Below are positions 1 through 55,971 of a stretch of DNA of 64,000 bases, piece after piece. Position numbers and translations under genes: made by a program. The stretch covers positions 9,049 through 73,048 of the forward strand of contig CAZXPC010000002.1 of assembly GCA_964643135.1 (NCBI GenBank). Reading direction: 5' to 3'. The notes below the pieces were generated by a model. The model saw only the letters and a program-made list of their open reading frames with translations. It did no database searches and had not been told where the DNA came from. This DNA comes from an uncultured Candidatus Saccharibacteria bacterium. Its GTDB lineage: Bacteria > Patescibacteriota > Minisyncoccia > UBA6257 > Colwellbacteraceae. Every line of letters begins with the position of its first letter. Position 1 is the first letter of the stretch.

Positions 1-1806
1 CATGTCACCCCCGCCTAAAAGCTTTTCAGCGCCAGCGCTATCAAGAATTGTTTTTGAGTCGACTTGTGAAGCAACTTGCAGCGCGATACGGCTGCCGATG
101 TTGGCTTTGATCAAACCTGTGATGACATCAACTGATGGGCGTTGCGTGGAAAGCACTAAGTGTATGCCGGTTGCGCGCGCCATTTGAGCCAGTCGGACGA
201 TTGAGTTTTCGATTTCGCGGCCGAAAGTGACCATCAAGTCTGCAAGCTCATCAATCACGATCACGAGGTATGGCATTTTAGCGGTTGAGCTGTTAGCTTT
301 GATGCCATCGTTGTAGCTCGCGATGTCGCGCTTGCCGGCCGCGGCGAGTGTCGTGTAGCGGCGGTCCATTTCTTCAATAGCAAAGCGCAATGCAGCGATA
401 GATTTCTTGCCGTCGGTAATAACTGGAGTCACAAGGTGGGGGATGCCGGCATAGATCGAGAGCTCGACGCGCTTCGGGTCGATCAAAATGAGGCGCATCG
501 TTTCCGGCGAGTTTTTATAGATTAGCGAAATTAGCAAACTGTGGATCATGACGGACTTTCCTGAACCTGTCGTACCGGCGATCAAGAGGTGAGGCATCTT
601 GGCGAGGTTGCCGAACATGGGTTCGCCTGAGACATCACGGCCCAAAACGAAGGTTAAGAGATTTTGCGAGTTGCCGAACTCGGCATAGCTGATCAAATTG
701 CCCAAGCGCACGATTGAGGCAGTCTTGTTGGGAATTTCGATGCCGACCAATGACTTTCCGGGGATCGGCGCTTCGATACGGATCGGGTGCGCAGCCAAGG
801 CGAGCGCCAAGTCCTGGTTCAAGGTCGTGATCTTGTTAATTTTTACGCCTTCAGCCGGTTTTAAGGTGTAGCGAGTGACTTTGGGGCCGATCGTGATCTC
901 GCCCATTTCAACCGGAATGCCAAAAGATTCAAGCGTGCGTTTAATAATGTTGGCGTTAGCGCGCAGATCGCCGGCGGAGGGCTTGTCGTTCGAAGTCTTA
1001 AGTAAAGTAATTGGCGGAGGAACGTAGTTTTTGAAGTTGGCCGGAATCTTGTCGATCAGTGCGCCTTTGCCGCCTGATTCAGAGATGCGAATGTCTTCTT
1101 TCGAGAGTGGTTTGGCGGGCTTGGCTTCTTCTGTAGGCGCAGCTGACGCTTTCTTGCCGGTCCTTTGTTCCTTGCTCTCCACCGCGCGCTGTTCGGCTTC
1201 GCCAATTTCCATGGCTTTTAAGTCTTCTTCAGTTAATGATTCAGCGCCGGCTTTGGCTTTCTCGGTCTCTTCTTCAGCCTCCTCGTTTTTTCTAAACATA
1301 TTTTTTAGCCAGTGCAATCTTAAAGGCACATTGAAAGCCAAAAGAATCGAGGCGATCATAATCGTAACGTTTAAGACAATCGAGGCGCCATAGCCAAAAA
1401 GATATTGCAGACTGCCAAAGGCTTTGCCGAAGACCCCGCCGTGGCCATATTCCACAATGTCGAGCAGCCCAAGCGCTGAGAGCAAAAAGAGAGCGGCGCC
1501 TACAAGCGTGTTTCCCAGAAGCTGAGCCGTTTCGCCCAAAAGGAAAGCAATACTGATTGAAATCAGAATGAGCGGGATTAAGTAGTAGCCCCAGCCGAAA
1601 AGTTGCCCGAGGCCGGCAAAGATCGCGTCGCCCCAAGGCCCCGCTTTGCCAAAGGCCGATAGCAACAGAATGATCGAAACGCCGATAAAAACTATGCCGA
1701 AGATACTGAGCTTAGCCTCATGTTTAAGTTCCCGTAGGGGATTCTGAATAAGTCCGTCTTCGCGCTCTTTTCTTCTAGTTTCTTTGGCTTTTTTCCTTTT
1801 GGACAT
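1..1806 (-). CDS. ftsK: DNA translocase FtsK/SpoIIIE (C-terminal part runs off window start)
   Basis: Reverse translation gives MSKRKKAKE..., N-terminal TM helices, a Walker A GTTGSGKS, and the FtsK motor region ...ALRFAIEEMDRRY..., ...MPYLVIVIDELADLM..., ...ATGIHLVLSTQRPSVDVITGLIKANI. The stop lies beyond position 1, so no complete ORF appears in the track. Confidence 0.9.
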   Translation of the reverse strand, partial: MSKRKKAKETRRKEREDGLIQNPLRELKHEAKLSIFGIVFIGVSIILLLSAFGKAGPWGDAIFAGLGQLFGWGYYLIPLILISISIAFLLGETAQLLGNTLVGAALFLLSALGLLDIVEYGHGGVFGKAFGSLQYLFGYGASIVLNVTIMIASILLAFNVPLRLHWLKNMFRKNEEAEEETEKAKAGAESLTEEDLKAMEIGEAEQRAVESKEQRTGKKASAAPTEEAKPAKPLSKEDIRISESGGKGALIDKIPANFKNYVPPPITLLKTSNDKPSAGDLRANANIIKRTLESFGIPVEMGEITIGPKVTRYTLKPAEGVKINKITTLNQDLALALAAHPIRIEAPIPGKSLVGIEIPNKTASIVRLGNLISYAEFGNSQNLLTFVLGRDVSGEPMFGNLAKMPHLLIAGTTGSGKSVMIHSLLISLIYKNSPETMRLILIDPKRVELSIYAGIPHLVTPVITDGKKSIAALRFAIEEMDRRYTTLAAAGKRDIASYNDGIKANSSTAKMPYLVIVIDELADLMVTFGREIENSIVRLAQMARATGIHLVLSTQRPSVDVITGLIKANIGSRIALQVASQVDSKTILDSAGAEKLLGGGDM

Positions 1807-1868
1807 AATAAATAAGAGATATGAAAATTGCTCGAATATCTAGTATTGTATACGTTTTCAGTAATTTT

Positions 1869-2522
1869 TTATACCACCGAGAACCTCTTGAGCTTTTTGA
1901 AATATGTCTCGATCGAGTCGTCGTCAATTTTGTTCGGGCTTATGGTGCAAAGGTCGAAGATATCGCCTTCGATCTTGGCCAGGGCGTCGCGCCAAGCTCG
2001 CTCATTTTCTGCGCTTTCAATGCCTCGGAACTTTTTATTGGCATGCCTGCGTTTAAGGTCGGCGATCCTTTCTTCAATGGATACAATGCCGCCCATCCCT
2101 CCTCGCATATCGGCATAGCTGCATATTTTTTGATTTAGGTTGTCTTGGCCGGCTAATTCTACTTGGTATTCAGATTTACCCATTTTGTCCACCAAATCCA
2201 GAGTGATTCTATTTACCCCGATCTCTCTCGCAATTTCATGGCTTGCAGCATGCTCATCAGCGTACTTTGCTTTGAATTCTTTCTGCACCCTAACCCAGTG
2301 GTCTAAACCCAGCGGCTCAACTTTGTCCGGCGAATTTTCCAAGTTGTACTTCATAATGTTGCCCAGATCATGCAACAAACAAGCTGATATGATCTCATCG
2401 CGATCGATTGCGGCATCGATAGAATCACAAATTAACGCCGCCACCGAAGCCACCTGCAACATATGGTCTTGCAAGTGCGGCATAATTTTATAATGCCCGT
2501 AAATTTCGGAAATCGTTTTCAC
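1869..2522 (-). CDS. HD-domain metal-dependent phosphohydrolase
   Basis: 217-aa ORF with LLHDLGN (HD motif) and conserved downstream Asp residues. Confidence 0.7.
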   Translation of the reverse strand: MKTISEIYGHYKIMPHLQDHMLQVASVAALICDSIDAAIDRDEIISACLLHDLGNIMKYNLENSPDKVEPLGLDHWVRVQKEFKAKYADEHAASHEIAREIGVNRITLDLVDKMGKSEYQVELAGQDNLNQKICSYADMRGGMGGIVSIEERIADLKRRHANKKFRGIESAENERAWRDALAKIEGDIFDLCTISPNKIDDDSIETYFKKLKRFSVV

Positions 2523-2615
2523 GAAGTTTATTTTAGCAGAAAGAAAAAAAGAAAAAAGTACTCTAGCTGTGATGCGAATTATTACTTTGTGTATTAACTG
2601 CGGCTGATATTAAGC

Positions 2616-2966
2616 CTACAAAATTTGAATTTTTGATAATCCTAATGCAAAGAAAAACAACAGGATAGAAAATGTGAGCCCTGGAATAAATGAGGCTGAG
2701 AAAAACAATATCAAACCTATGACTAATTTCATCACTTTTGCTGAATCTAGAGATTCCTTCTTAGTTATGAAGTAAGCGAATATTAAGTAAATAGGTAAGG
2801 CCAAGAGATTCACGCTTAGGGGGAAAGGAAGAGGCTCGCCCCAGTTGATCCAGAGAATTAAGGTTCCAGAAATAATTCCAAGACCCAGACTTTGCCAATA
2901 GAAATTATTAGATCTAAAAGCTAAATAGGCCAGAAGGCAAAGAATTAATGTAATAAATAATACCAT
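2616..2966 (-). CDS. hypothetical integral membrane protein
   Basis: 116 aa, predicted four hydrophobic helices, no recognisable motif. Confidence 0.5.
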   Translation of the reverse strand: MVLFITLILCLLAYLAFRSNNFYWQSLGLGIISGTLILWINWGEPLPFPLSVNLLALPIYLIFAYFITKKESLDSAKVMKLVIGLILFFSASFIPGLTFSILLFFFALGLSKIQIL

Positions 2967-2993
2967 TTAGAGAAATTATACCACGGGAGCCGT

Positions 2994-3107
2994 TTACAAC
3001 GGCCCTGGAAATTTGGTGAGGATAGAGTAGAAAAGATTTAAATTCTGATATGAGTCGACATCACTTCGTGCCTTCTTCAAAATGACGGAAAAAAGAAAAA
3101 AGCCGAG
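2994..3107 (-). repeat. degenerate copy (copy 4) of the pyrG 3' end / direct repeat DR-A
   Basis: Sequence 3001-3107 aligns with 3921-4026, 4545-4650 and the genuine pyrG 3' end at 4741-4870. Minus-strand translation gives ...FFRHFEEGTK, a relic of FFVGTQAHPEF. Confidence 0.5.
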
Positions 3108-3148
3108 CGGTGGAGAGAGTCCCATTGCTCGGCAAGAGCGCTCGGCAT

Positions 3149-3457
3149 TCAGGTATTCGTTCTTCGCGGATCGGGCTCCGGCTCGGGCGGCGGGTGGCCC
3201 ATGCCCGGCCAAAAGCTCTTTCGGAGCCAGGCAGTTGTCGACGGGTCATTCCCGAACCGAAAAGCGATGTCGGTCGTACTCGAGATGTTCCCGAGATAAA
3301 GAACAGTCCGAACGGTTTCCTCAATGGTTTCCCGGCGCGCGCTAACGTGGTACTGCCCTTCTGCGATACGCCCTACGAAGCCGGTGGCAGTTCGGCCGAT
3401 CACGATCATGACTCTGGGCCCGAACGGTTTCTTAGGCTTTCGCCAGATAAGCCGCAT
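3149..3457 (-). CDS. hypothetical protein (GC-rich ORFan, possibly a gene fragment)
   Basis: 102-aa ORF in a ~58% GC segment flanked by pyrG 3' copies. Overlapped by an equally long plus-strand ORF, so the coding call is weak. Confidence 0.25.
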   Translation of the reverse strand: MRLIWRKPKKPFGPRVMIVIGRTATGFVGRIAEGQYHVSARRETIEETVRTVLYLGNISSTTDIAFRFGNDPSTTAWLRKSFWPGMGHPPPEPEPDPRRTNT

Positions 3458-3554
3458 CGTTACACCAATATTTTCAGATTGGACCCTAAATTGTTTTTAG
3501 TCAACAAATAAAAAGCGCCCTAGCCGAAGCCTTGGCGCGAGAGGGAGTGCGGCC

Positions 3555-3866
3555 TCAGCATTCGCTGAAACCGCAGGCGGTGCACTTGATGCAGCCTTCT
3601 TGTAGGTACAGGGGAATCCCGCAGTCCGGACAGTCTGGGTTGTCGCCCCTCTGCTCGAGCTCCTTGGTTGTAGGAGCTGTTCTGAACTTTTCCCTCACTT
3701 CTTTTCCGATCTGCTTGACCTTGAGGGTGTACTCAGATGTCCACCGGCAGCGGAAAGTTGCTTCATCGAGAGCGCTTCCGAGGATGTCGAAGTCCTGCTG
3801 TTCTCCATCGGAATCGGTCAGCCTGAAAGAGCCACGTCCGATCTGTTCAATCAAGATCTCACGCAT
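3555..3866 (-). CDS. hypothetical protein with C-terminal CxxC...CxxC zinc ribbon
   Basis: 103 aa ending ...[27 protein letters not shown]-rich, on the same strand as pyrG. The alternative plus-strand ORF 3532-3942 is low-complexity. Confidence 0.45.
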
Positions 3867-3895
3867 TCAGATCTCTGGAATCATAGAACGATTTT

Positions 3896-4027
3896 ACTTA
3901 TTTGTCAAAGAGGCTTTAATCAGCGCCTTAAAAAGCGGATGAGGATTCAAAGGTCTGCTTTTGAATTTGGATATGCGTCGACGTCACTTCGTGCCTTTTT
4001 CAAATGACAGAAAAAAAGAAAAAGCCT
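3896..4027 (-). repeat. degenerate copy (copy 3) of the pyrG 3' end / direct repeat DR-B
   Basis: Minus-strand translation ...FKSRPLNPHPLFKALIKASLTNK* mimics the PyrG C-terminus. 3968-4027 is ~90% identical to 3045-3107. Confidence 0.55.
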
Positions 4028-4086
4028 ATTTTAAAAGCAACTTAGATAAGTAAACATTTTATTTATGTTATAATATTTTTATCGAC

Positions 4087-4557
4087 ATGAGAAATCTTCA
4101 AGTTAGATCAATAATATCTCTAGCGATTTTTCACTTTGTTTTCGTATTGATTATTGTCGGTTTGGTTAGCATCGTTTTAGGCCTTTTCTCAATAGCAACT
4201 GCTATTATCGAGGCGTGGCTAAATAATCTACTTGGATTTGATGCATCTTCTTTGGTTGAGGTTTCTTTATCTGTTCTCGTTGGTGTTATGATTTCGACTC
4301 AAGTCATGGGCAAGAGGGTCGTGATAAAAGAACCGCGTAAACTTGCGGTTTTTTCTACGGTCTGCTTGCTGCTGTTACTAATTGGATTACTATCGGCAGA
4401 GTTTTTGACTGAAGGATTTTTCCCCATGCAATTGGGTTTTTGGATATATATTGTAGCAGGAGTAATTTCTTTTTATGTTTTTAGTGAAATATTTTTAAGG
4501 CAGCAGTCGAAAAAGCAGCTTATTAGTCTGTCAGAGACGCCTTCACTAAGGCCTTAA
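4087..4557 (+). CDS. hypothetical membrane protein
   Basis: 156 aa, four hydrophobic segments, AT-rich. Located between pyrG 3' copies 3 and 2. Confidence 0.55.
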   Translation: MRNLQVRSIISLAIFHFVFVLIIVGLVSIVLGLFSIATAIIEAWLNNLLGFDASSLVEVSLSVLVGVMISTQVMGKRVVIKEPRKLAVFSTVCLLLLLIGLLSAEFLTEGFFPMQLGFWIYIVAGVISFYVFSEIFLRQQSKKQLISLSETPSLRP

Positions 4558-4650
4558 AAAGCGGGTGAGGTTTTAGAGGTCTGGATTTGAATTCGGGGAT
4601 GAGCCGTCGGAGCTTCGCTCCTCCTTCAAAACCCTCGGTTTTGAACATCT
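4524..4650 (-). pseudogene. PyrG C-terminal fragment (copy 2 of pyrG 3' end)
   Basis: Minus-strand translation ...RRLIPEFKSRPLKPHPLFKALVKASLTD* resembles the CTP synthase C-terminus. Lies ~190 bp downstream of the intact pyrG stop. Confidence 0.6.
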
Positions 4651-4719
4651 GGCTGTTGACCAGATTCCGACACGGGGAAACGCACGCCTTTCCCCGACCC
4701 CCTTTGACGGCCCACCCCT

Positions 4720-6402
4720 TTATTTTTGTTTGATGCTGGCTCTCACAAAGGCCTTGAACAGTGGATTAGGTCTGAGAGGTCTGGAGGTAAATTCGGGGTG
4801 GGCCTGGGTCCCTACAAAAAACGGGTGGATTTTTCTGGGTAGTTCCATAAATTCCATGAGGCGTTTGTTGGGGGACTCGCCGGAGAAAACTACGCCGCCT
4901 TTTTCTAAGGTCTCTATATATTGCGGGTTAACTTCGTAGCGATGGCGGTGGCGTTCGGTGATATGTGATGCGCCATAAGCCTCGCGCACAATTGTGCCGG
5001 GTTTTAAGTTGGCCGGGTATGAGCCGAGGCGCATTGTTGCCCCATAATCTTTGTTATTCATTTTCTCAATTTGTTCTGGCAGGATGTCGATAATTGGGTT
5101 TTTGGTTTTTGGGTTCACCTCGGTTGTGTGGGAGTCTTTGAGACCCAAAACATTGCGGGCGTATTCAACAGCGGCGAGCTGCATGCCGTAACAAAGGCCG
5201 AGGTAGGGGATCTTATTTTCTCGGCAATAGCGGATGACGTTGATTTTGCCTTCGACTCCGCGCGCGCCGAAGCCGCCGGGCACGATTATGCCATCAAACT
5301 TATCCAAACTCTTAAGATTTTTCATCGTCCTTCCAGCCGCTGACCCGTAGGCGTCAGCATTAACTGACTCGAAGTCGTTGGAGCTTAGCCATTCAATGAC
5401 CGGAATTGCCTTTTCTGAATAGGCGGCGTGTTTCACGGCTTCGATTACAGATATGTATGAGTCAGAGAGCATAAAGCTGCCGGTCGCGAAATATTTGCCC
5501 ACAATGCCGATTTTAACTTGGCGTTGTTTGCGGCCGGCTTCTTCAATTGAATTGATTAACCCCCGCCAGTCGTGGCCATCTTTCTTTTTCGTCCTCAATC
5601 CAAGTGTTTCCATTACGATTTTATCCACCTTTTCTTCTTTGAAGATCTCCGGCAGGTCATAGATGTTTTTGACGTTGGGCGCTGAGATTACATTTTCCTG
5701 GCGGACGTTGCAGTTGAAAGCAATTTTCTCTTTGCGTTTGTCGTCGAGTGAAGTCTTGGCGCGGGCTAAGATCATATCCGGCTGCAGCCCAACGCTGTTT
5801 AACGAACGCACGGCGTATTGAGTCGGCTTGGTTTTTAGTTCTTGGTCCTCGCCTTGAGAGGGGAGGTAGCTTACGAGTGTTAAAAAGACCGAGTGAGGGT
5901 CTTGGAGTTTCAAAATACGCACGGCTTCCAAGAAAAGCATGTTTTGATACTCGCCGACTGTGCCGCCGATTTCGGTAATTACAACGTCAGCCGATGCTTT
6001 CCTCGCGGCATTCTTGAGTCGGGCAATAACTTCCAGCGGAATGTGCGGCACCACTTCGACGCACTTGCCGTCATATTCAAGATTGCGTTCTTTCTGAATG
6101 ACGTGCAGGTAGACTGAGCCGGTTGTCATATAGTTGGCTCTAGTTAGGTCGACATCTAAGAAGCGTTCGTAGTTGCCCATGTCTTGGTCGGTTTCCAGGC
6201 CGTCGTCTAACACAAAAACCTCACCGTGTTCGGTGGGGTTCATGGTCCCGGCATCAACGTTGATGTAGGGGTCGATTTTAATGGCGGTGACGTTGAGGCC
6301 GTGGAATTTGAGGAGGCGGCCGATCGCGGCTGAGGCGGTGCCTTTGCCGACGCCCGACATTACTCCGCCGACGATAAAGATGTAAGAAGTTTTGTGCGGC
6401 AC
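4720..6402 (-). CDS. pyrG: CTP synthase
   Basis: 560 aa; N-terminal synthetase domain (GGVMSGVGKGTASAAIGRLLK), C-terminal glutamine amidotransferase domain (GLCYGMQ, HPEF). Confidence 0.95.
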   Translation of the reverse strand: MPHKTSYIFIVGGVMSGVGKGTASAAIGRLLKFHGLNVTAIKIDPYINVDAGTMNPTEHGEVFVLDDGLETDQDMGNYERFLDVDLTRANYMTTGSVYLHVIQKERNLEYDGKCVEVVPHIPLEVIARLKNAARKASADVVITEIGGTVGEYQNMLFLEAVRILKLQDPHSVFLTLVSYLPSQGEDQELKTKPTQYAVRSLNSVGLQPDMILARAKTSLDDKRKEKIAFNCNVRQENVISAPNVKNIYDLPEIFKEEKVDKIVMETLGLRTKKKDGHDWRGLINSIEEAGRKQRQVKIGIVGKYFATGSFMLSDSYISVIEAVKHAAYSEKAIPVIEWLSSNDFESVNADAYGSAAGRTMKNLKSLDKFDGIIVPGGFGARGVEGKINVIRYCRENKIPYLGLCYGMQLAAVEYARNVLGLKDSHTTEVNPKTKNPIIDILPEQIEKMNNKDYGATMRLGSYPANLKPGTIVREAYGASHITERHRHRYEVNPQYIETLEKGGVVFSGESPNKRLMEFMELPRKIHPFFVGTQAHPEFTSRPLRPNPLFKAFVRASIKQK

Positions 6403-6472
6403 ATTCTATAATAGCATAACGATAATAAAAAATGCACCAGGCCTAGATGGCTAGAAATTCTGGTGCCGGGCG

Positions 6473-6694
6473 TCAGAAGGTGACAAACCGGAGGCGCTGG
6501 TTTTTCGCATACCAGGTTCGGGTCACGATATCGTCGTGAAACTCGATCCGCGTCCCGGTTGCAAGCCCCCGATATTTCGCGCGGAGGCTATTCAGCGCTT
6601 CGTGGATGTCGCCCCCCGAGGCGTACTTGTTCAGGTCGCCGTCGATGCAAACGTGGACGTCTTGGCTCCGCTTCGTTACGAGGATATGGACCAT
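6473..6694 (-). CDS. hypothetical small protein (GC-rich)
   Basis: 73-aa ORF, ~57% GC against ~45% in neighbours, no motif recognised. Confidence 0.35.
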   Translation of the reverse strand: MVHILVTKRSQDVHVCIDGDLNKYASGGDIHEALNSLRAKYRGLATGTRIEFHDDIVTRTWYAKNQRLRFVTF

Positions 6695-6766
6695 CGAGTC
6701 ACTCCTTACTATTTCAGGCTAGCGATTATACTTTTTATTGTCAATCTGCTAGAATCAGGCCCAATT

Positions 6767-7345
6767 ATGGCCAATAAAGACATTCTCGTAATTGATATCG
6801 AGACCAAAAACAGCTTTGCCGACGTGGGCGGCCAGCACAACCTGAGGAATTTAGACGCCTCGCTGATTTGTGCTTATTCATACAATCAAGACAAGTATTA
6901 CTTAATCCGCGAGGGCAAATTCCACGAAATTTCCGACATGCTGCAAAACGCGGGCTTAATTGTCGGCTTCAGCATCAACCGCTTTGATTTGCCGGTCATG
7001 AATAAATATTACAAATTTAATTTAATGAGTTTGCCGCGCCTGGATTTACTGGATGAGATTGAAAATGCTCATGGCCGCCGGATTAGCCTAGACTTGCTTG
7101 CCAACGCCAACCTGGGCTATGGCAAGACCGGCCACGGCTTAGACGCGATCGAATATTATAAAAAAGGCGACTGGGAAGCGCTTGAGAAGTATTGCCAGCA
7201 AGATGTGAAGGTAACCAAGGAGCTTTACGACTTAGCCAAAAAACAAAAACATCTGCTTGTACCGCAGAAGTGGAATGCCAATCATGTGAAAGTTGAGTTG
7301 GATATTCAGGATGTCCTGATGACCTCGCCGAATACTTTGTTCTAG
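6767..7345 (+). CDS. DEDD-family 3'-5' exonuclease (RNase H-like, PolB-exonuclease-related)
   Basis: ILVIDIETKN (Exo I), GFSINRFDLPVM (Exo II), YCQQDVKVTKELY (Exo III). Start taken at MANKD, preceded by TAGAAT 8 nt upstream. Confidence 0.7.
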   Translation: MANKDILVIDIETKNSFADVGGQHNLRNLDASLICAYSYNQDKYYLIREGKFHEISDMLQNAGLIVGFSINRFDLPVMNKYYKFNLMSLPRLDLLDEIENAHGRRISLDLLANANLGYGKTGHGLDAIEYYKKGDWEALEKYCQQDVKVTKELYDLAKKQKHLLVPQKWNANHVKVELDIQDVLMTSPNTLF

Positions 7346-7379
7346 ATCATTGACAGAGGATAAAAGGCGACCAGATCTC

Positions 7380-8250
7380 AGTTGTTTAGGCTGGGACAAG
7401 GTCGCAGTGATGCGGAACTTAATCCGCTTGGAGTGGCGGCGTCGGATAGGGATTTGAACCCTCGTTCAGGACCCTATTATGTCGGGAAAGATTTGTTCGC
7501 ATGCCTCAGGGCGCTTCAGTTCCACTCGTGCGGGTGATGCTTGCCGCATTTGTAGAACCTTGGCATTCCCGTCTCGGCCTCATAAGCTTACTAGGGCGCT
7601 CCGCGAATACGACCTAAAGACACCACGTGGGCCGGGATATGAACCTCCCGCACCTAATCTACTGGAACCATAGATCCATGATGTGCCGTATTCGTCCTGC
7701 ATACTCCCGTTCGGCAAATTCAGCCTACTTTGCATGCTCGCTCATCCGTCCGTCATCGCGGCTCTCATACCGGGGCATAAGTTCCCTTCAAAACCAGGAA
7801 ACGAACCCCTTCGGAGAATTGCCTTCCCCTGAGACCCAAATGGTAATCTCATAGAGCCGCACTTTTCGCCCTACTATCCTTGCTATCCAATTTCCTGACT
7901 AGTCCTACTTCTCTACGCCCTGGTCGGTCCCCATGGTGAAGGGTGACAATGAGAAGTGGTAGGCCCACGAAAGGGTAGGACGTTTAGGTAAATTGGCTTC
8001 GCACGTAGCCGAGCGATTAGTTCCATCTTGATTCACCGAGCCTTACCGGCCCTCTATCAAGACTCTCTATATCCTTAGCCTTCCGGTGGGTAACCCTCAG
8101 GTTTGAGCCGAGGCACCGGTGCTTTTGGCTGAACTATCGACGCCAGTTGGTAAAGAGCTGTCCGTCGGCTTGCTTCGGGAAAACTCTTCGTTGCATCTTC
8201 ATTCTAGCATGGGTCACTCCTCAGTCAATGAATTGAAAAGAGGCTGGTTG
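7380..8250. other. 870-bp ORF-free region; candidate structured RNA or decayed element
   Basis: No ORF above 75 aa on either strand in an otherwise dense genome. Minus strand carries a tRNA-like T-arm/acceptor/CCA fragment (rc of 7437-7465: GAGGGTTCAAATCCCTATCCGACGCCGCCA). Confidence 0.3.
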
Positions 8251-8571
8251 TGTGATTAACTTCGATTGGTACAAAGGGATGAGATTTTGGAAGCTCCTCC
8301 TGTTTCTCAAGTCCATCGACTGGTCAGCCAAGTCATCTGTCAGCCAGACGGCGGCATCATCATGGCAGTTTGTGTCTGCGGTTGGGTTACCGAACCCAAA
8401 GTCAAAGGCAAGATGCTTGAGGTCGTTCAGATCATCAATCATCACACGGGTGCGGAACTGCGTTTGAAGTTCAGGCTAGACGGGGCGATTGAGGTGGTGG
8501 TTTGATCAGGTCTGGCCGCGGGTTTTTCCCACGGCTTGTTTTTTTTGGGCCTCGCGACTATCGTTTTAGTG

Positions 8572-9735: not shown

Positions 9736-10998
9736 ATGAACAAAAAAATTCATCATATTATAGGGTTACTGGCGATTATTATTATGGTTCTTTTGACTGG
9801 TTCGGCGTTGGTACAAAACGCAAACGCCAATTCATTTTCAGATTTCTTTAAGAACATTTGGGGAGGTCATAATGTTACTCCCGTTCCGGCCTCGCCTGCT
9901 TCTGCTCCTTATGCGCCGACAGTTGATTACGAAGCGGCGGTAGTAAATGCCGTTGATCAGGGCCTAAAGAGCGTGGTTTCGATTGCGATTTCGAAAGATG
10001 TGCCTGTCCTCGAGCAGTGCCCTTATAACCCGTTTGGCGATCTTGGACCGGACTTCAATAACTTTTTCGGCGACAATAGCGGCATGGGCCAATTCTATAC
10101 TCAGTGTCCGACCGGTAAGAATCAGAAGCAAGACATTGGCGGCGGCAGCGGTTTTATTGTGAGCGCTGATGGCTTAATTCTAACCAATAAGCATGTCGTC
10201 GCTGATACCAAAGCTGATTACACAGTTGTTCTGGGCGATGGATCCAAATATCCGGCTAAAGTTTTGGCCCGGGATCCCAACCAGGATATTGCTCTCATTA
10301 AAATCGACAAAACCGGCCTGACTGCCGCCAAGCTGGGCGATTCCAATTCGATCAAACTTGGGCAGACAGCGATTGCGATCGGCAATGCCTTGGCACAATT
10401 TAGCAACACTGTTTCGGTAGGAGTTGTTTCTGGCCTTTCCCGCAGTATCACGGCTTCCGGCGCCGGAACGGGCGGGTCTGAAGACCTGGCTAATTTGATC
10501 CAAACCGATGCGGCTATCAACCCGGGCAACTCGGGCGGTCCCTTATTAAACCTCAAGGGCGAAGTGATCGGCATCAACGTTGCGGTGGCCCAGGGGGCGC
10601 AGAATATTGGTTTCACTATCCCGATTAATACGGCGAAGCGCGATATTGACTCGGTCGTGAAGTCGGGCGTCATTAAGACTGCTTATATCGGCGTCCGCTA
10701 CACGATGATTACTGCCGATATGGCAAAAACTCAAAAGCTCAGTTCTGATTACGGAGCGCTGATCCGGGGTTCAGCTGACGGCCCGGCGGTCATGGCTAAT
10801 TCGCCGGCTGATAAGGCTGGATTGAAAGCTGAAGATATTATTTTAGAAGTTAACGGCGTCAAGCTCGACAACGCCACCCATACTTTAGCTTCCGAGCTTC
10901 AGAATTATAACGTCGGAGATACGGTCAACTTGAAAGTTAAAAGGGGAAGCGACGTCTTGACGATTCAGGTGACGCTCGGTGAACGGCCGGCGGCCTAG
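9736..10998 (+). CDS. htrA: HtrA/DegP-family serine protease with PDZ domain
   Basis: N-terminal TM/signal, His (TNKHVV), Asp (DIALIKID), Ser (GNSGGPLLN) triad, C-terminal PDZ-like segment. Confidence 0.9.
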   Translation: MNKKIHHIIGLLAIIIMVLLTGSALVQNANANSFSDFFKNIWGGHNVTPVPASPASAPYAPTVDYEAAVVNAVDQGLKSVVSIAISKDVPVLEQCPYNPFGDLGPDFNNFFGDNSGMGQFYTQCPTGKNQKQDIGGGSGFIVSADGLILTNKHVVADTKADYTVVLGDGSKYPAKVLARDPNQDIALIKIDKTGLTAAKLGDSNSIKLGQTAIAIGNALAQFSNTVSVGVVSGLSRSITASGAGTGGSEDLANLIQTDAAINPGNSGGPLLNLKGEVIGINVAVAQGAQNIGFTIPINTAKRDIDSVVKSGVIKTAYIGVRYTMITADMAKTQKLSSDYGALIRGSADGPAVMANSPADKAGLKAEDIILEVNGVKLDNATHTLASELQNYNVGDTVNLKVKRGSDVLTIQVTLGERPAA

Positions 10999-38864: not shown

Positions 38865-39551
38865 TTAAGCAGGAATGTACTGGTAGTCGGCGACCTTAGG
38901 CAGGCGGATGGTGCGCAAGACTTTGCCGAAAATTTTGTAAGTTGAGTTGCCGTCGATAATGATAGGTCTAAAAGATTTATCCTTAGAAACTGGGTTTAAG
39001 ACAATGATGTCATCAGCCCGCACATATTTTTTGATGACCGCGTTGTCGTTGATCAGGGCCACTACAATGTCGCCGATCTCGATACTCTGATCAGGGATGC
39101 GCTCCACCAAAACTAAGTCGCCGTCATAGATATCCGCGCCCTGCATACTGTTGCCGACCGCTTTGATGACGAAAAGATTTTCTTTTTTGTGGCCTTTCAC
39201 CAAGTTGGTCGAGATGTCGACAAACTCGTCAAAGATTCGCTCGGCTAAGACCGACAAGTTGCCGCAACCGGCTGAAGCAAAAACCGGAATGCTGATTGTA
39301 AAAGATTCTTTTTTATTGGGGTTGATCAGCTGAATGCTCCGGCTCTTGTAGCGTTCGCGAGTGATGAGACCTTTCTTAGAGAGAACGTTGAGGTACTGAA
39401 TGACCGAGCGCGAGGAGGGCTTTTTCATCGCCTCGGCGATTTCGGCGATGGTAGGGGACTCGCCATGATTCAAAATATATTTCGAAATAAAATCAAAAAC
39501 CTTTTGCTGCTGCTTCGTCAGATCTATTTTGATGTGATTAATTTTCTTCAT
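38865..39551 (-). CDS. lexA: LexA repressor (S24 peptidase)
   Basis: N-terminal wHTH, AG cleavage site (ASAGCG), GNSM catalytic Ser, downstream Lys. Confidence 0.85.
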   Translation of the reverse strand: MKKINHIKIDLTKQQQKVFDFISKYILNHGESPTIAEIAEAMKKPSSRSVIQYLNVLSKKGLITRERYKSRSIQLINPNKKESFTISIPVFASAGCGNLSVLAERIFDEFVDISTNLVKGHKKENLFVIKAVGNSMQGADIYDGDLVLVERIPDQSIEIGDIVVALINDNAVIKKYVRADDIIVLNPVSKDKSFRPIIIDGNSTYKIFGKVLRTIRLPKVADYQYIPA

Positions 39552-39555
39552 GTTT

Positions 39556-39623
39556 TTGTGTATATCTACATACTACCATATGTGTATATACACATCAATC
39601 CACAAGAGTGTATACCCTGTGGA
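39556..39623. promoter_or_regulatory. candidate LexA operators between lexA and dam
   Basis: Perfect 16-bp palindrome ATGTGTATATACACAT (39580-39595); related TGTGTATATCTACATA 5 bp from the lexA ATG; CCACAagagTGTATACcctGTGG at 39601-39623. Confidence 0.45.
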
Positions 39624-39677
39624 TAAGATATGTTATTATTTTGTAGGTTTCTAAAGTATTGGGATAATGATATATTT

Positions 39678-40592
39678 ATGACGATGTTGATTAATCAATT
39701 AAAAACCGTCAAGAGCGGTCTTTTGGTTCCTACTGGGGATCGTAAGAACCCTAGGCCTTTTTTGAAATGGGTTGGTGGCAAATCACAGATAATCGAAAAA
39801 ATAAAAGAGAATCTTCCTCGAGAATATAATCGTTATTTCGAGCCGTTCCTGGGTGGAGGTGCCGTTTTCTTCAAAGCAATTCCCTGGGATAAGCAGGCTG
39901 TCTTGAGCGATATAAATGGCAACCTTGTCGGAGCGTTTAGTGATATAAAAGCAAATTTCGACGAAGTCATTTTTGAGATAAACAACTTGATAAATGGGTA
40001 TAAGAACCTTAGTCCTAAAGGCATGGAGCGATTCTACTACGACAGAAGGGATGAATATAACTCGATAAGAACTCCGAGCGCCTCTATAAAGAGGACTGCC
40101 TTGTTAATTTTTCTTAATAAGACTTGCTATAACGGCGTTTATAGAGAAAACTCTAAGGGAGAATTTAATGTGCCGATCGGGTATAAGACTTTAAGAAATA
40201 TCTTTAACAACGAGAATCTTGAATTGGTTGCTAAGAAACTTAAGTCAGCCAAGATTGTAAACATGAGCTACAAAGATATTCTTGATCAAGCCCAAAGAGG
40301 AGATCTTATTTATCTTGACCCCCCCTATAACCCGCTAACCAAGACTGCCAATTTCACAAAATATAACAGTGCCGATTTTGGGCCCAAGGATCAGATAGAG
40401 CTCAGAGATCTCTTCATGGATTTAGATAATCGAGGATGTTATCTCATCATGAGCAATTCTGATACTGAGTTGACGCGCAGTCTTTACTCTAATTATGCTA
40501 GCAAAATAGTACGGGTTGAAGCTGCGCGTACAGTTAATTGTCACGGATCTTCTCGTAAACCAGTCGGAGAAGTATTGATAAAAAACTTTTAA
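39678..40592 (+). CDS. dam: Dam-family (D12 class) DNA N6-adenine methyltransferase
   Basis: KWVGGKSQ, FEPFLGGGAVFF (motif I), DPPY (motif IV). GATAAT -10 element 7 nt upstream of the ATG at 39678. Confidence 0.85.
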   Translation: MTMLINQLKTVKSGLLVPTGDRKNPRPFLKWVGGKSQIIEKIKENLPREYNRYFEPFLGGGAVFFKAIPWDKQAVLSDINGNLVGAFSDIKANFDEVIFEINNLINGYKNLSPKGMERFYYDRRDEYNSIRTPSASIKRTALLIFLNKTCYNGVYRENSKGEFNVPIGYKTLRNIFNNENLELVAKKLKSAKIVNMSYKDILDQAQRGDLIYLDPPYNPLTKTANFTKYNSADFGPKDQIELRDLFMDLDNRGCYLIMSNSDTELTRSLYSNYASKIVRVEAARTVNCHGSSRKPVGEVLIKNF

Positions 40593-42562
40593 TGGCTAAG
40601 AAGTCTAAAAAGACCACAAGAGAAATAGGTAATGAGTTGCATGATAGAATGCGGATTCTATTTAGTAAAATGGATTTTAGAATTCTAGACAGTGATTATA
40701 ATGCAGAAGGTCCTGATATAGTTATACAAGACGACAGTCTGAAAGTAAAAATACTTATTCAGTGTAAAAAACACGAAGGAGAGGAGAAAACATATTCTGC
40801 AATTTCACGTTTAACCGACGAATATGCTCATAAAGTTTCTAGGATGAAGGCTTCGGCGGCCATCCTAACTCTTTCTGGGTATAAGCCAAGCCGTAGAGTA
40901 AATATTAGTGAAGAAATAAGGACCAAGAAGGTCTCTATATGGACAGACTCCTTGATTGATTATTATGAGGACTTAACGAAGAAGATCGGATTATATGCGA
41001 AATATCAAATGCTTTCTGACCTTGGACTTAAGGTGAGATTCGACAAGGATAAAGAATTTGATGCGATTAAAGTCTCGCAAAATGGCATCGAATTTTATGC
41101 ATTCAAAGCTAGCCCAGAATGGCTGCTAAGATCAGCTGCGGTTGTGCGAAGGATTAATTTAGGAGGAAGGCTAACAGGTTATCAAAGGTTGCTATCTCGA
41201 GATCGCGTAAAAAATAAGATTCCTAAGTTTCTTGATGAAGGCGAGTGGGTATTTCCTAACACGATAATCTTTGCATCAGAGTTGGGATTGGATATTAGGT
41301 ATAAGGATGGGAAGATGATTTTTCCAAGTAAACTAGGCTCAGTTTGGGTTATCGATGGACAACACCGACTCTATTCCTTTGCTAATATTCAGAATTCAGT
41401 TGTTAGGGAGAGCAGCGAACTTCTATGCACTGTTATAGACAGTTCGGCTTTGGGTCAAGACGCAGAAGCTAAGCAGGCATCAATTTTTGTCACTCTAAAC
41501 CAACAAGCCAAAAAAGTAGATAAATCGTTAATATTCGAACTATATAGACTCTTGGGTTTAACTGATCCTGGTGTCGAGATAGCTATTAGACTTTCTGAGT
41601 CGAAATTGTTTAAAGGATTAGTCTCTGGCTATTCAGATAAGGGAGGGTTGATAACGATAACGACGCTCGTCGCTTCGATAAAAAGTTTGATATCTGCTAG
41701 CAATCCGTTGTTAAGGGTTAGGCTAAATGATAGAAACGTTGCTGATATTTTGTTTAACAAATTGTATATTTTTTTCCAGAAAGTTAACAAGGTATTTAGG
41801 AAAGAATGGGGATCTGAAAAGTATATTTTATCAGAAAATAGAGGCGTCGGAGCTTTAATTGAACTATATAATAAGGCGCTCATCTTTTGCAAAAATAACA
41901 ATAAAGATTTGGATAATTATTCTATCAAGCTCCTTGAGTCCCTGAAAAAATCAGGGTTTAATCTCAGTTCGGAAAATCTTAAAGGTCAATACCTCGGTGA
42001 AGGAGGCCCTAGGAAGTTGGCTATGGAGTGGGCTTCTTTAATTACGAAAACAATACCTGGTTTCGAGCCTGGAGTTGAAGAAAGAACAATTGATAAGTTC
42101 TCTTCAAAACACGGGGATCTTCAGGGTGCTGAAAATAAGTTAAAAGACTGGCTCCCAAATCTTAAAGGAGAGATTAGAGGAAAATTGATGCATATTGATC
42201 CAACAACAATTGAATACTTAAGATGCATCCCAAAAGAAACTAATATGAGAATATTCTTTGGAGATGCTGATGAAGAAGCCTTAGTTAGGGAACGTCTTAG
42301 AAAAATGAGGGCCGATGGCTATAAAATAATCCTTACTAAGGCACAGAAGCCTACTAAGGGAAGTCTTTTTCATGAGAGATGGATTGCGTCAGAAGCTTTA
42401 AGGATTCAGCTAAATTGTGATCTAAAGAAACAAGCAATTAAAAACGCAACATATTTCATGTATTTATCAGAATGGAATAAGGCTCCAGAAATTGTTGAGT
42501 TTGATCAGGATTGGCAACAGGCGCAGAGAGAATTTCAATTTGAATATAATTGGGGAGCTTAG
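40592..42562 (+). CDS. fusion protein: N-terminal Mrr-like PD-(D/E)xK nuclease domain + DGQHR (DndB/ParB-like) domain + uncharacterised C-terminal region
   Basis: ATG overlaps the dam stop (TAATG). GPDIVIQDD...KILIQCKK (nuclease motifs II/III), VWVIDGQHRLYSF and FVTLNQQ (DGQHR signature). Confidence 0.65.
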   Translation: MAKKSKKTTREIGNELHDRMRILFSKMDFRILDSDYNAEGPDIVIQDDSLKVKILIQCKKHEGEEKTYSAISRLTDEYAHKVSRMKASAAILTLSGYKPSRRVNISEEIRTKKVSIWTDSLIDYYEDLTKKIGLYAKYQMLSDLGLKVRFDKDKEFDAIKVSQNGIEFYAFKASPEWLLRSAAVVRRINLGGRLTGYQRLLSRDRVKNKIPKFLDEGEWVFPNTIIFASELGLDIRYKDGKMIFPSKLGSVWVIDGQHRLYSFANIQNSVVRESSELLCTVIDSSALGQDAEAKQASIFVTLNQQAKKVDKSLIFELYRLLGLTDPGVEIAIRLSESKLFKGLVSGYSDKGGLITITTLVASIKSLISASNPLLRVRLNDRNVADILFNKLYIFFQKVNKVFRKEWGSEKYILSENRGVGALIELYNKALIFCKNNNKDLDNYSIKLLESLKKSGFNLSSENLKGQYLGEGGPRKLAMEWASLITKTIPGFEPGVEERTIDKFSSKHGDLQGAENKLKDWLPNLKGEIRGKLMHIDPTTIEYLRCIPKETNMRIFFGDADEEALVRERLRKMRADGYKIILTKAQKPTKGSLFHERWIASEALRIQLNCDLKKQAIKNATYFMYLSEWNKAPEIVEFDQDWQQAQREFQFEYNWGA

Positions 42563-55613: not shown

Positions 55614-55670
55614 CCACTGGCGGTAAATACTAAAAAATATCTGACAGATTCAGATATTTTCTAGTATATG

Positions 55671-55971
55671 CTCCGCAGGTAGGGATCGAACCTACGACCA
55701 TCGCCTTACACTTGTCCTATCGTTGCCGTTAGGGGTGGACTATATCATATCCCGTTTCTTACCGGGACCGAGGCGCTTCCGCGCAACTGTTTTGCGAGTA
55801 CTCCCACTAGGGGATAGTCTCTACACCTTCCGAACGAATTGTCCGGCTTGGCTCGGGATTGCCCATTTAAATTAAAAAGGGTTTCCCCGAATTCACCTCG
55901 TTTTTCAAACTAGATTGCTCTAGTAAGCTGCCTTCTGACAGGGCGCCGCTCTACCGCTGAGCTACTGCGGA
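55671..55971 (-). tRNA. tRNA-Asn (anticodon GTT) interrupted by a group I intron
   Basis: Exons 55938-55971 and 55671-55708 splice to TCCGCAGTAGCTCAGCGGTAGAGCGGCGCCCTGT|TAAGGCGATGGTCGTAGGTTCGATCCCTACCTGCGGAG, closely matching a bacterial tRNA-Asn (anticodon loop CTGTTAA). A hairpin (55634-55660) follows the gene. Confidence 0.8.
55709..55937 (-). ncRNA. group I intron (IC3-like) in the tRNA-Asn anticodon loop, no ORF
   Basis: ~229 nt between anticodon positions 35/36. Contains GAAGGTGTAGAGACTA and CGAGCCAAGC core elements as in the Azoarcus tRNA-Ile intron (recalled from memory). U at -1 can pair with intron GCAG (P1); intron ends in G. Confidence 0.7.

Follow-up and report, generated by a model that had tools for sequence, protein, structure and literature searches.

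The 64-kb stretch of DNA analyzed here (hereafter the window; contig CAZXPC010000002.1) belongs to an uncultured bacterium of the Patescibacteria (Candidate Phyla Radiation, CPR), and the region 3' of its CTP synthase gene, pyrG, holds an ordered array in which the end of that gene recurs in displaced copies separated by DNA of foreign composition. We consider it probable that this array arose through serial, site-specific insertion into the 3' end of pyrG and that what remains is an accretion array of three integrase-less mini-units resembling cis-mobilizable elements (CIMEs). Repeated insertion with replacement 3' ends had already been put forward in an earlier note made from the bare sequence, and it is the best-supported explanation of the locus on the combined grounds of coding constraint, a shared breakpoint and arm, congruent units and foreign spacers, although its mechanism has to be reconstructed and no integrase was found in the window.

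Feature order, and the description of all tails and arms, are given here in the sense of pyrG, which lies on the minus strand. The gene itself (4720-6402, minus) is intact and remains full length: it opens with a GTG start and encodes 560 residues with Pfam matches to CTP_synth_N (3e-102) and GATase (6e-35). Its product shares 57-69% identity with CTP synthases of Paceibacteria and of Colwellbacteria-type metagenome-assembled genomes (MAGs), and two large collections contain nothing closer. A repeat finder combined with alignment delimits four in-register copies of the pyrG tail, over a 56-nt segment, at 4743-4798 (the real end), 4543-4598, 3917-3972 and 2994-3049, with start-to-start spacings of 200, 626 and 923 nt. 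With the copy at 4543-4598 as reference, nucleotide identity amounts to 80% for the real tail, 75% for the copy at 3917-3972 and 61% for the one at 2994-3049. The displaced copies hold about the last 25 codons of pyrG (~75 nt), and no other gene in the window has displaced copies of its tail. Together, the four tails bound three inserted blocks, which are thereby flanked by direct repeats carrying the target's 3' end. The displaced pyrG ends described in the earlier note are hence real, being four in-register tails when the resident one is counted, and the translations quoted there for the pyrG ends are correct.

The pyrG character of the displaced copies was assessed with a profile for which the 70 C-terminal residues were taken from each of 75 pyrG proteins of Patescibacteria. 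The profile search returned E-values of 2e-13 for copy 2, 7e-12 for copy 3 and 0.009 for copy 4. Over the 22 shared residues, copy 2 scores 37.8 bits, copy 3 33.4 bits and the resident tail 34.4 bits, while the 75 natural tails span 33.8-43.3 bits. Copy 2 thus falls inside the natural range and copy 3 just below it, so that both still look like working pyrG ends. Tail 1 (4720-4797, minus), which runs from the PEF codons to the stop, is the currently functional end of pyrG and scores within the range of natural tails, at its low end; it was presumably supplied by the most recent insertion, unit E1. Tail 2 (4523-4597, minus; PEFKSRPLKPHPLFKALVKASLTD and its stop codon) is a displaced end whose frame is open and which lies within a 41-residue open reading frame (ORF) at 4523-4648. 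Tail 3 (3894-3971, minus; SKFKSRPLNPHPLFKALIKASLTNK and its stop codon) is likewise a displaced end, with a frame that is intact from the junction onwards and a stop codon just upstream in the adjoining arm. Neither tail 2 nor tail 3 shows a stop or a frameshift between the junction and its own stop codon. Tail 4 (2971-3048, minus; SEFKSFLLYPHQISRAVV...) is decayed: its true pyrG relic is SEFKSFLLYPH, at about 2983-3048, its register is set by the adjoining arm, and it has 36-39 of 66 nt in common with tails 1 and 2. This would be the oldest of the tails and possibly the original one.

The divergence of the tails points to a history of translation. Over their 22 shared codons, tails 2 and 3 are separated by 8 synonymous and 4 non-synonymous codon differences (non-synonymous divergence, dN, 0.14; synonymous divergence, dS, 1.21), tails 1 and 2 by 7 and 6 (dN 0.21, dS 1.24) and tails 1 and 3 by 8 and 9 (dN 0.45, dS 1.09). 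Among tails 1-3, dN/dS ranges from 0.12 to 0.41 with dS above 1 (P<=0.001), the values being about 0.12-0.17 for tails 2 and 3 and for tails 1 and 2. When an equal number of substitutions was placed at random in 20,000 simulated trials, so few amino acid changes without a stop were obtained in 0.015-0.085% of trials for tails 1-3 (P = 0.00015 to 0.00085), and the divergence of tail 4 is compatible with neutral decay (P about 0.1). The mostly synonymous divergence of tails 1-3 implies that they diverged for long while being translated as pyrG ends, and comparatively briefly as dead sequence.

Divergence of this coding type counts against the alternative that the earlier note had set beside insertion, in which local tandem duplication of the pyrG 3' end was followed by neutral decay and by unrelated insertions between the copies. 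Such a process would fit the fact that the copies are direct, share one orientation and become less similar with distance from pyrG. It sits poorly, however, with intact frames and saturating synonymous change, with a copy 2 that is nearer to the clade consensus than the resident tail (37.8 vs 34.4 bits, copy 3 reaching 33.4), with the start of all displaced copies at one codon, behind a shared arm that is not of pyrG origin, and with spacers of opposite and foreign composition. We therefore regard local duplication as very unlikely. To judge from their sequence, tails 2 and 3 appear to be old functional tails of pyrG rather than decaying local duplicates.

The boundaries of the displaced copies lend further weight to serial integration. 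In all three, pyrG homology begins at a single point, profile position 45/46, which corresponds to the PEF of an HPEF motif that is invariant in the columns of the pyrG profile and whose His and Glu serve catalysis in class I amidotransferases. Upstream of PEF the displaced copies are unlike pyrG but alike one another, and they share there an arm of about 35-56 nt that comprises a T-run, TTTGAAGAAGG, a small hairpin with a GAA loop, and GTCGAC..CAT. Arm A (4598-4632, minus; E-value 2e-10 with an nhmmer arm profile) lies directly upstream of tail 2 and contains the hairpin GGAGC-GAA-GCTCC; arm B (3972-4026, minus; 5e-10), upstream of tail 3, consists of a T-run and then TTTGAAAAAGGCACGAAGTGACGTCGACGCATA; and arm C (3049-3104, minus; 9e-12) is found upstream of tail 4. 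Identity is about 86-90% between arms B and C and about 70% between arm A and either of them. The ~60-bp direct repeats of ~90% identity reported in the earlier note correspond to arms C and B, and the motif FFRHFEEGTK, mistaken there for a relic of pyrG, turns out to be a translation of the non-pyrG arm common to copies 2-4. The arm was also considered as diverged pyrG coding sequence, a possibility that is ruled out by the profile alignment, which ends at PEF. With nhmmer, the arm was located nowhere beyond its three known copies, either in the window or across ~2 Mb from related loci, and an exact pattern found it in none of the viral contigs.

Arms and tails also tell a joint story about the limits of the units. 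Tails 3 and 4 match at just 34 of 66 nt although the arms next to them, B and C, hardly differ. When tails and arms are instead matched across whole units, so that tail 1 goes with the distal arm A, tail 2 with arm B and tail 3 with arm C, the relationships are congruent, E2 and E3 being closest and E1 more distant in both parts. Arm and tail similarities agree only if the units run from tail through cargo to arm, the mosaic that is expected of attachment (att) junctions.

A shared homology boundary could, nonetheless, stem from common ancestry of the incoming DNAs if the array had been assembled through homologous or homology-facilitated illegitimate recombination (e.g. in natural transformation), with Campbell-type, RecA-mediated insertion by way of the ~70 nt of tail homology. 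No dedicated enzyme would be called for, in keeping with the failure to find a recombinase gene in the array or among the ~50 ORFs of the window, and the tails would be what they appear to be, genuine pyrG ends of related lineages. Yet tails with 61-76% nucleotide identity and saturated synonymous sites are too divergent and too short for efficient exchange. Moreover, the non-pyrG arm abuts every displaced tail, similarity switches sharply at the junction in a manner that fits a defined crossover site, and no donor-like synteny downstream of pyrG was seen. We deem insertion by RecA an improbable origin for the array.

What is directly observed is a set of repeats with one breakpoint in common, the coding-type divergence among tails 1-3, the homology of the arms and the foreign composition of the cargo; a recombinase, a circular intermediate and an order of events are what we infer from these. 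Under serial integration, a single site in the pyrG 3' end would have undergone site-specific recombination three times or more in succession. That site would coincide with the invariant His-Pro-Glu-Phe codons in the glutamine amidotransferase domain or lie immediately behind them. The attP of each incoming circle would have comprised the non-pyrG arm, a short core (around CCNGAATTYA) and a pyrG-like tail of its own, with ~24 codons plus the stop. Integration would then join the body of pyrG to the tail brought by the element, thereby keeping the essential gene intact, and would push the earlier tail downstream, where it would be preceded by the arm of the element. Repeated events at the pyrG-proximal site would stack the units in the order pyrG, E1 (tail 1, 87 nt and arm A), E2 (tail 2, a membrane-protein gene and arm B), E3 (tail 3, ORF103 and ORF102, and arm C) and, finally, tail 4 as the oldest end. 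The units, of 200, 626 and 923 nt, might be either deletion remnants of larger elements, as in CIMEs, or non-autonomous elements moved by a recombinase encoded elsewhere.

The base composition of the blocks departs from that of the host in both directions. E3 has 58-61% GC, with a GC content at third codon positions (GC3) of 0.65-0.68, and E2 has 31-38% GC (GC3 0.34), as against 47.7% for the genome and a GC3 of about 0.57-0.60 for host genes; with values so removed from those of the host, the two units can be regarded as foreign in opposite directions. The small ORFs are thus not uniformly GC-rich, as had been stated in the earlier note: only the spacer at 3105-3893 is GC-rich, and both the spacer at 4027-4522 and the gene that follows copy 4 are AT-rich. 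The body of E1 (4633-4719, minus) is an 87-nt GC-rich segment with no ORF, in which sequence and folding reveal hairpins (GGGGAAA...TTTCCCC at 4674-4695). The cargo of E2 (4087-4557, plus) is an AT-rich gene that runs antisense to pyrG, overlaps tail 2 with its 3' end and encodes a predicted membrane protein of 156 residues, which belongs to no Pfam family and whose sole match among 5.8 billion proteins is itself.

The GC-rich block of E3 had been credited with two small ORFs, ORF103 and the more doubtful ORF102. ORF103 (3555-3866, minus; 103 residues) has a coding-like GC content (0.53/0.45/0.65 at codon positions 1, 2 and 3) and is preceded by a strong promoter-like site, TTGACA-17-TATGAT (3880-3908, minus; 11/12 matches), that overlaps the stop codon of tail 3. 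After it comes a terminator-like hairpin with a T-run (GCGCC...GGCGC TTTTTATTT; 3506-3538, minus), read directly from the sequence and missed by a simple terminator scan because its loop exceeds 8 nt. ORF102 (3149-3457, minus; 60% GC), a possible ORF of 102 residues, is by comparison a doubtful gene: it is not called in the public gene collection and has no homologues, its match to DUF5675 is weak (E 0.019), and its AF2 model (pLDDT 49.6) is too poor to use. The N-terminal ~60 residues of ORF103 are orphan, and the C-terminal ~40 (3555-3674) are a zinc ribbon, CxxC...CxxC, with homology to the tail at the C-terminus of NrdJ, the class II ribonucleotide reductase. It is possible that this ribbon is a second displaced gene end, derived from nrdJ. 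Many short proteins elsewhere end, however, in a ribbon of this type in unrelated contexts, and the window contains no nrdJ gene; hence ORF103 is treated here as a small ribbon protein. Among the cargo proteins, its ribbon is the only part with relatives, which are NrdJ tails, the rest being orphan, and neither PADLOC nor Rfam returned anything relevant.

Directly after tail 4 lies an AT-rich gene (2616-2966, minus; GC3 0.37) for a predicted membrane protein of 116 residues, which may be either the original downstream neighbor of pyrG or older inserted DNA. Between this gene and an HD-domain gene, a T-run at 2539-2558, which reads CTTTTTTCTTTTTTTC in the direction of pyrG, is a match to that of arms B and C. 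A fifth copy or arm beyond tail 4 was considered at this position and discarded, the match being confined to the low-complexity T-run and not significant.

The small size and content of the units bring to mind the cassette arrays of integrons, which also stack units of 0.2-1 kb with 0-2 small and often orphan genes at one site, between repeats that look like recombination sites, and in which the newest unit is presumably the one nearest the insertion point. By analogy, the pyrG units could be active cassettes, that is, miniature non-autonomous units (a replacement tail, 0-2 small genes with a promoter and terminator of their own, and a conserved arm) inserted and excised by a recombinase acting in trans. 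The good preservation of two tails (2 and 3) and two arms (B and C) would agree with such activity, as would the promoter-like site and terminator-like hairpin that E3 carries of its own, the lack of an integrase in cis, the makeup of E1, which is in essence an empty att site, and the two compensatory pairs seen among the three copies of the arm hairpin. These pairs are not significant, however (51/500 shuffles), and the three repeat units, tested on both strands, show no attC-like folding (z-scores of -1.6 to +0.5) and no long bipartite hairpin. The array also differs from integrons in having neither IntI nor attI, in being flanked by pyrG and a small membrane protein with no integrase in the window, in a repeat that stems from the end of a protein gene and is not attC-like, and in cargo of mixed orientation with at least one gene that has its own promoter-like site. 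In addition, no second array or related cassette came to light in 160 related pyrG loci, viral contigs or phage and plasmid records, tail 4 and E1 look decayed, and the small size of the units is explained equally well by deletion remnants. Active cassettes are therefore an unlikely explanation, and it must be considered doubtful that the pyrG end serves as the docking site of an undescribed Patescibacteria cassette system, in which a trans-acting recombinase would stack miniature elements as a functional analogue of the integron.

Serial integration at the pyrG end finds closer parallels in two established systems. The ssrA islands of Dehalococcoides are flanked by tandem repeats of the ssrA end, each with a conserved upstream motif that does not match ssrA (McMurdie et al. 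2011, PMC3146451). As proposed for the pyrG array, integration there was serial and took place at the 3' end of a single essential gene present in one copy; direct repeats of that end lie downstream of the gene, each with a conserved non-target motif directly upstream, and some of the islands lack integration genes and have been discussed as cis-mobilizable elements (PMC3146451). The target in Dehalococcoides is, however, an RNA gene (tmRNA) with a 20-bp repeat, whereas the pyrG array involves a protein-coding end of ~75 nt that must stay translatable. The islands, moreover, span several kb or more, and 16 of them carry a serine-recombinase module, as opposed to units of 0.2-0.9 kb and no recombinase at pyrG. 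The second parallel is provided by integrative elements of the conjugative (ICE) and mobilizable (IME) types, which frequently insert at the 3' ends of housekeeping protein genes, accumulate in tandem and degenerate into CIMEs (PMC5704250).

In accretion arrays such as ICESt1/CIME at fda of Streptococcus thermophilus (PMC5704250), as at pyrG, the direct repeat contains the end of the housekeeping gene, so that the target gene is not disrupted; here too, accretion is in tandem, and decayed elements keep their att sites once integrase and transfer genes are gone. Every unit of the pyrG array is bounded by tail/arm junctions and lacks a recombinase, in the manner of CIMEs, which are recognized by retention of attL and attR and loss of integration and transfer genes. 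CIMEs are also defined by descent from an ICE or IME through deletion and by mobilization in cis by a neighboring autonomous element; no autonomous relative of the units came up in the viral contigs, the phage and plasmid records or the related loci, and none adjoins the array in the window. A dif-like site (~28 bp with two inverted Xer-binding arms), the hallmark of integrative mobile elements exploiting Xer (IMEX), was looked for by eye inspection only, which disclosed no dyad-symmetric motif at the junctions. The pyrG array departs from known CIME arrays in its host clade, in its target and in having no autonomous partner element within it. Its units are also an order of magnitude smaller, and its repeats are strongly diverged at synonymous positions instead of near-identical.

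Several results weigh against serial integration. Related pyrG loci from 80 species-representative genomes and 80 metagenome contigs were examined by regular expressions, tblastn and self-blastn, in a comparison that the earlier note had proposed, and extra pyrG tails were present in 0/160, so that the case rests on one genome from one sample. Even the best relative, furthermore, reaches no more than 69% identity in pyrG, and no empty site in a close relative was found. Pfam identifies no tyrosine or serine recombinase in the array or in the ~50 ORFs of the window, and neither the viral contigs nor a search of the whole array against phage and plasmid records yielded an intact or free element or an attP-bearing virus or plasmid; the array had no match at all in those records. 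No known recombinase-binding motif is recognizable at the junctions, whose core is only loosely delimited, and units of 0.2-0.9 kb are far below the size of typical integrative elements or CIMEs.

The survey of relatives yielded some observations on the pyrG neighborhood at large. Integrases downstream of pyrG amount in these relatives to one Xer-like gene, in L013, a locus without extra tails. Hits to the tail in two further loci (L011 and L019) were dismissed as chance matches within other genes. In a Staskawiczbacteria locus (L018, 5079-5150), pyrG ends in a stretch of ~26 nt (GTCGGACATCGCCATACTTTATAG) of which an imperfect repeat lies ~20 nt past the stop codon, in what could be a tiny att-like duplication. 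When the pyrG-tail profile was run against viral contigs, no attP-like solo tail emerged, the hits being full-length viral or host pyrG genes, a tRNA-adjacent one (L165) and a fragment (L169). The latter (IMGVR_UViG_3300006334_000763, 6620-8000) combines PhoH-like and gp32-like phage genes with only the last ~125 residues of pyrG, followed by kdsA, and might represent a piece of captured host DNA, a junction of host and phage, or a chimera.

The closest syntenic genome is a Colwellbacteria MAG (L002) with the gene order nifS, exonuclease, pyrG, 0.9 kb, ftsK. The gap between pyrG and ftsK measures 2.9 kb in the window versus 0.9 kb in the MAG, a break of synteny that speaks for insertion; in the MAG it holds a small membrane ORF and non-coding DNA; that ORF also follows pyrG, but it has no sequence similarity to the 116-residue gene found after tail 4. 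About 0.5 kb of the gap in the MAG (10030-10500) is non-coding DNA with tandem TTTTTGCATCCC repeats and long complementary stretches. Further along the window, ~1.2 kb between the exonuclease-like and nifS-like genes (7346-8535) contain no ORF of at least 100 residues and no Rfam match, and show no similarity in sequence to the gap of equal length that the MAG has in the corresponding place.

It has to be weighed as well whether assembly produced the array, through a chimera or a repeat joined wrongly, given that the sequence is a metagenome-assembled genome from a single sample; exact-protein look-ups found the genome in that sample only and the pyrG protein in no other. The repeats, however, are 55-90% identical and their longest exact word is about 12-16 nt, too short to confuse a k-mer assembler, and a Logan contig (SRR8931233) that may share reads with the source assembly is 100% identical to window positions 686-6241, a stretch of 5,556 nt that spans the array. 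The lack of long exact words and the identical contig make an artefact unlikely, and the ordered structure of the array, whose units keep register and whose arms and tails are related congruently, reduces the chance of one still further, to the point where we would be surprised to see it confirmed.

Patescibacteria genomes are tiny, and we know of no well-characterized integrative elements in this group. The literature searched makes no mention of pyrG as an integration target. The idea of integration into the 3' ends of housekeeping protein genes, with tandem accretion, is itself not new, having been established for other systems (PMC5704250, PMC3146451); what sets this locus apart is that pyrG is the target, that the host belongs to another clade, that the repeats are strongly diverged at synonymous sites and that the units are so small. 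The locus points to repeated site-specific integration with gene-end replacement at one essential gene, and the array would illustrate how far such elements can shrink while their att scars persist. More generally, comparing synonymous and non-synonymous change in displaced gene ends offers a simple means of separating serial integration from local duplication in MAGs. If the units were mobile as such, they would represent a new cassette-type system; otherwise, the array would be an ordinary, though tidy, integration scar.

Other parts of the window show features of their own. Between the start of pyrG and the exonuclease gene lies ORF73 (6473-6694, minus), a GC-rich orphan of 73 residues with a GC3 of 0.77 versus about 0.58 for the host, in a region (6412-6751) bracketed by 20-nt inverted repeats (6412-6431 and 6732-6751) that may be another small foreign insertion. 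In an AT-rich block at 38865-42562 (32-37% GC), genes for a DndB-like protein and a D12 adenine methyltransferase lie next to a LexA-like repressor; the block may constitute a DNA-modification or defence islet. Finally, the anticodon loop of a tRNA-Thr(UGU) gene (55670-55971, minus) is split by a 229-nt group I intron, which is matched by the Rfam family Intron_gpI with 61 bits at 55716-55951, and ARAGORN finds this tRNA only when introns are allowed.

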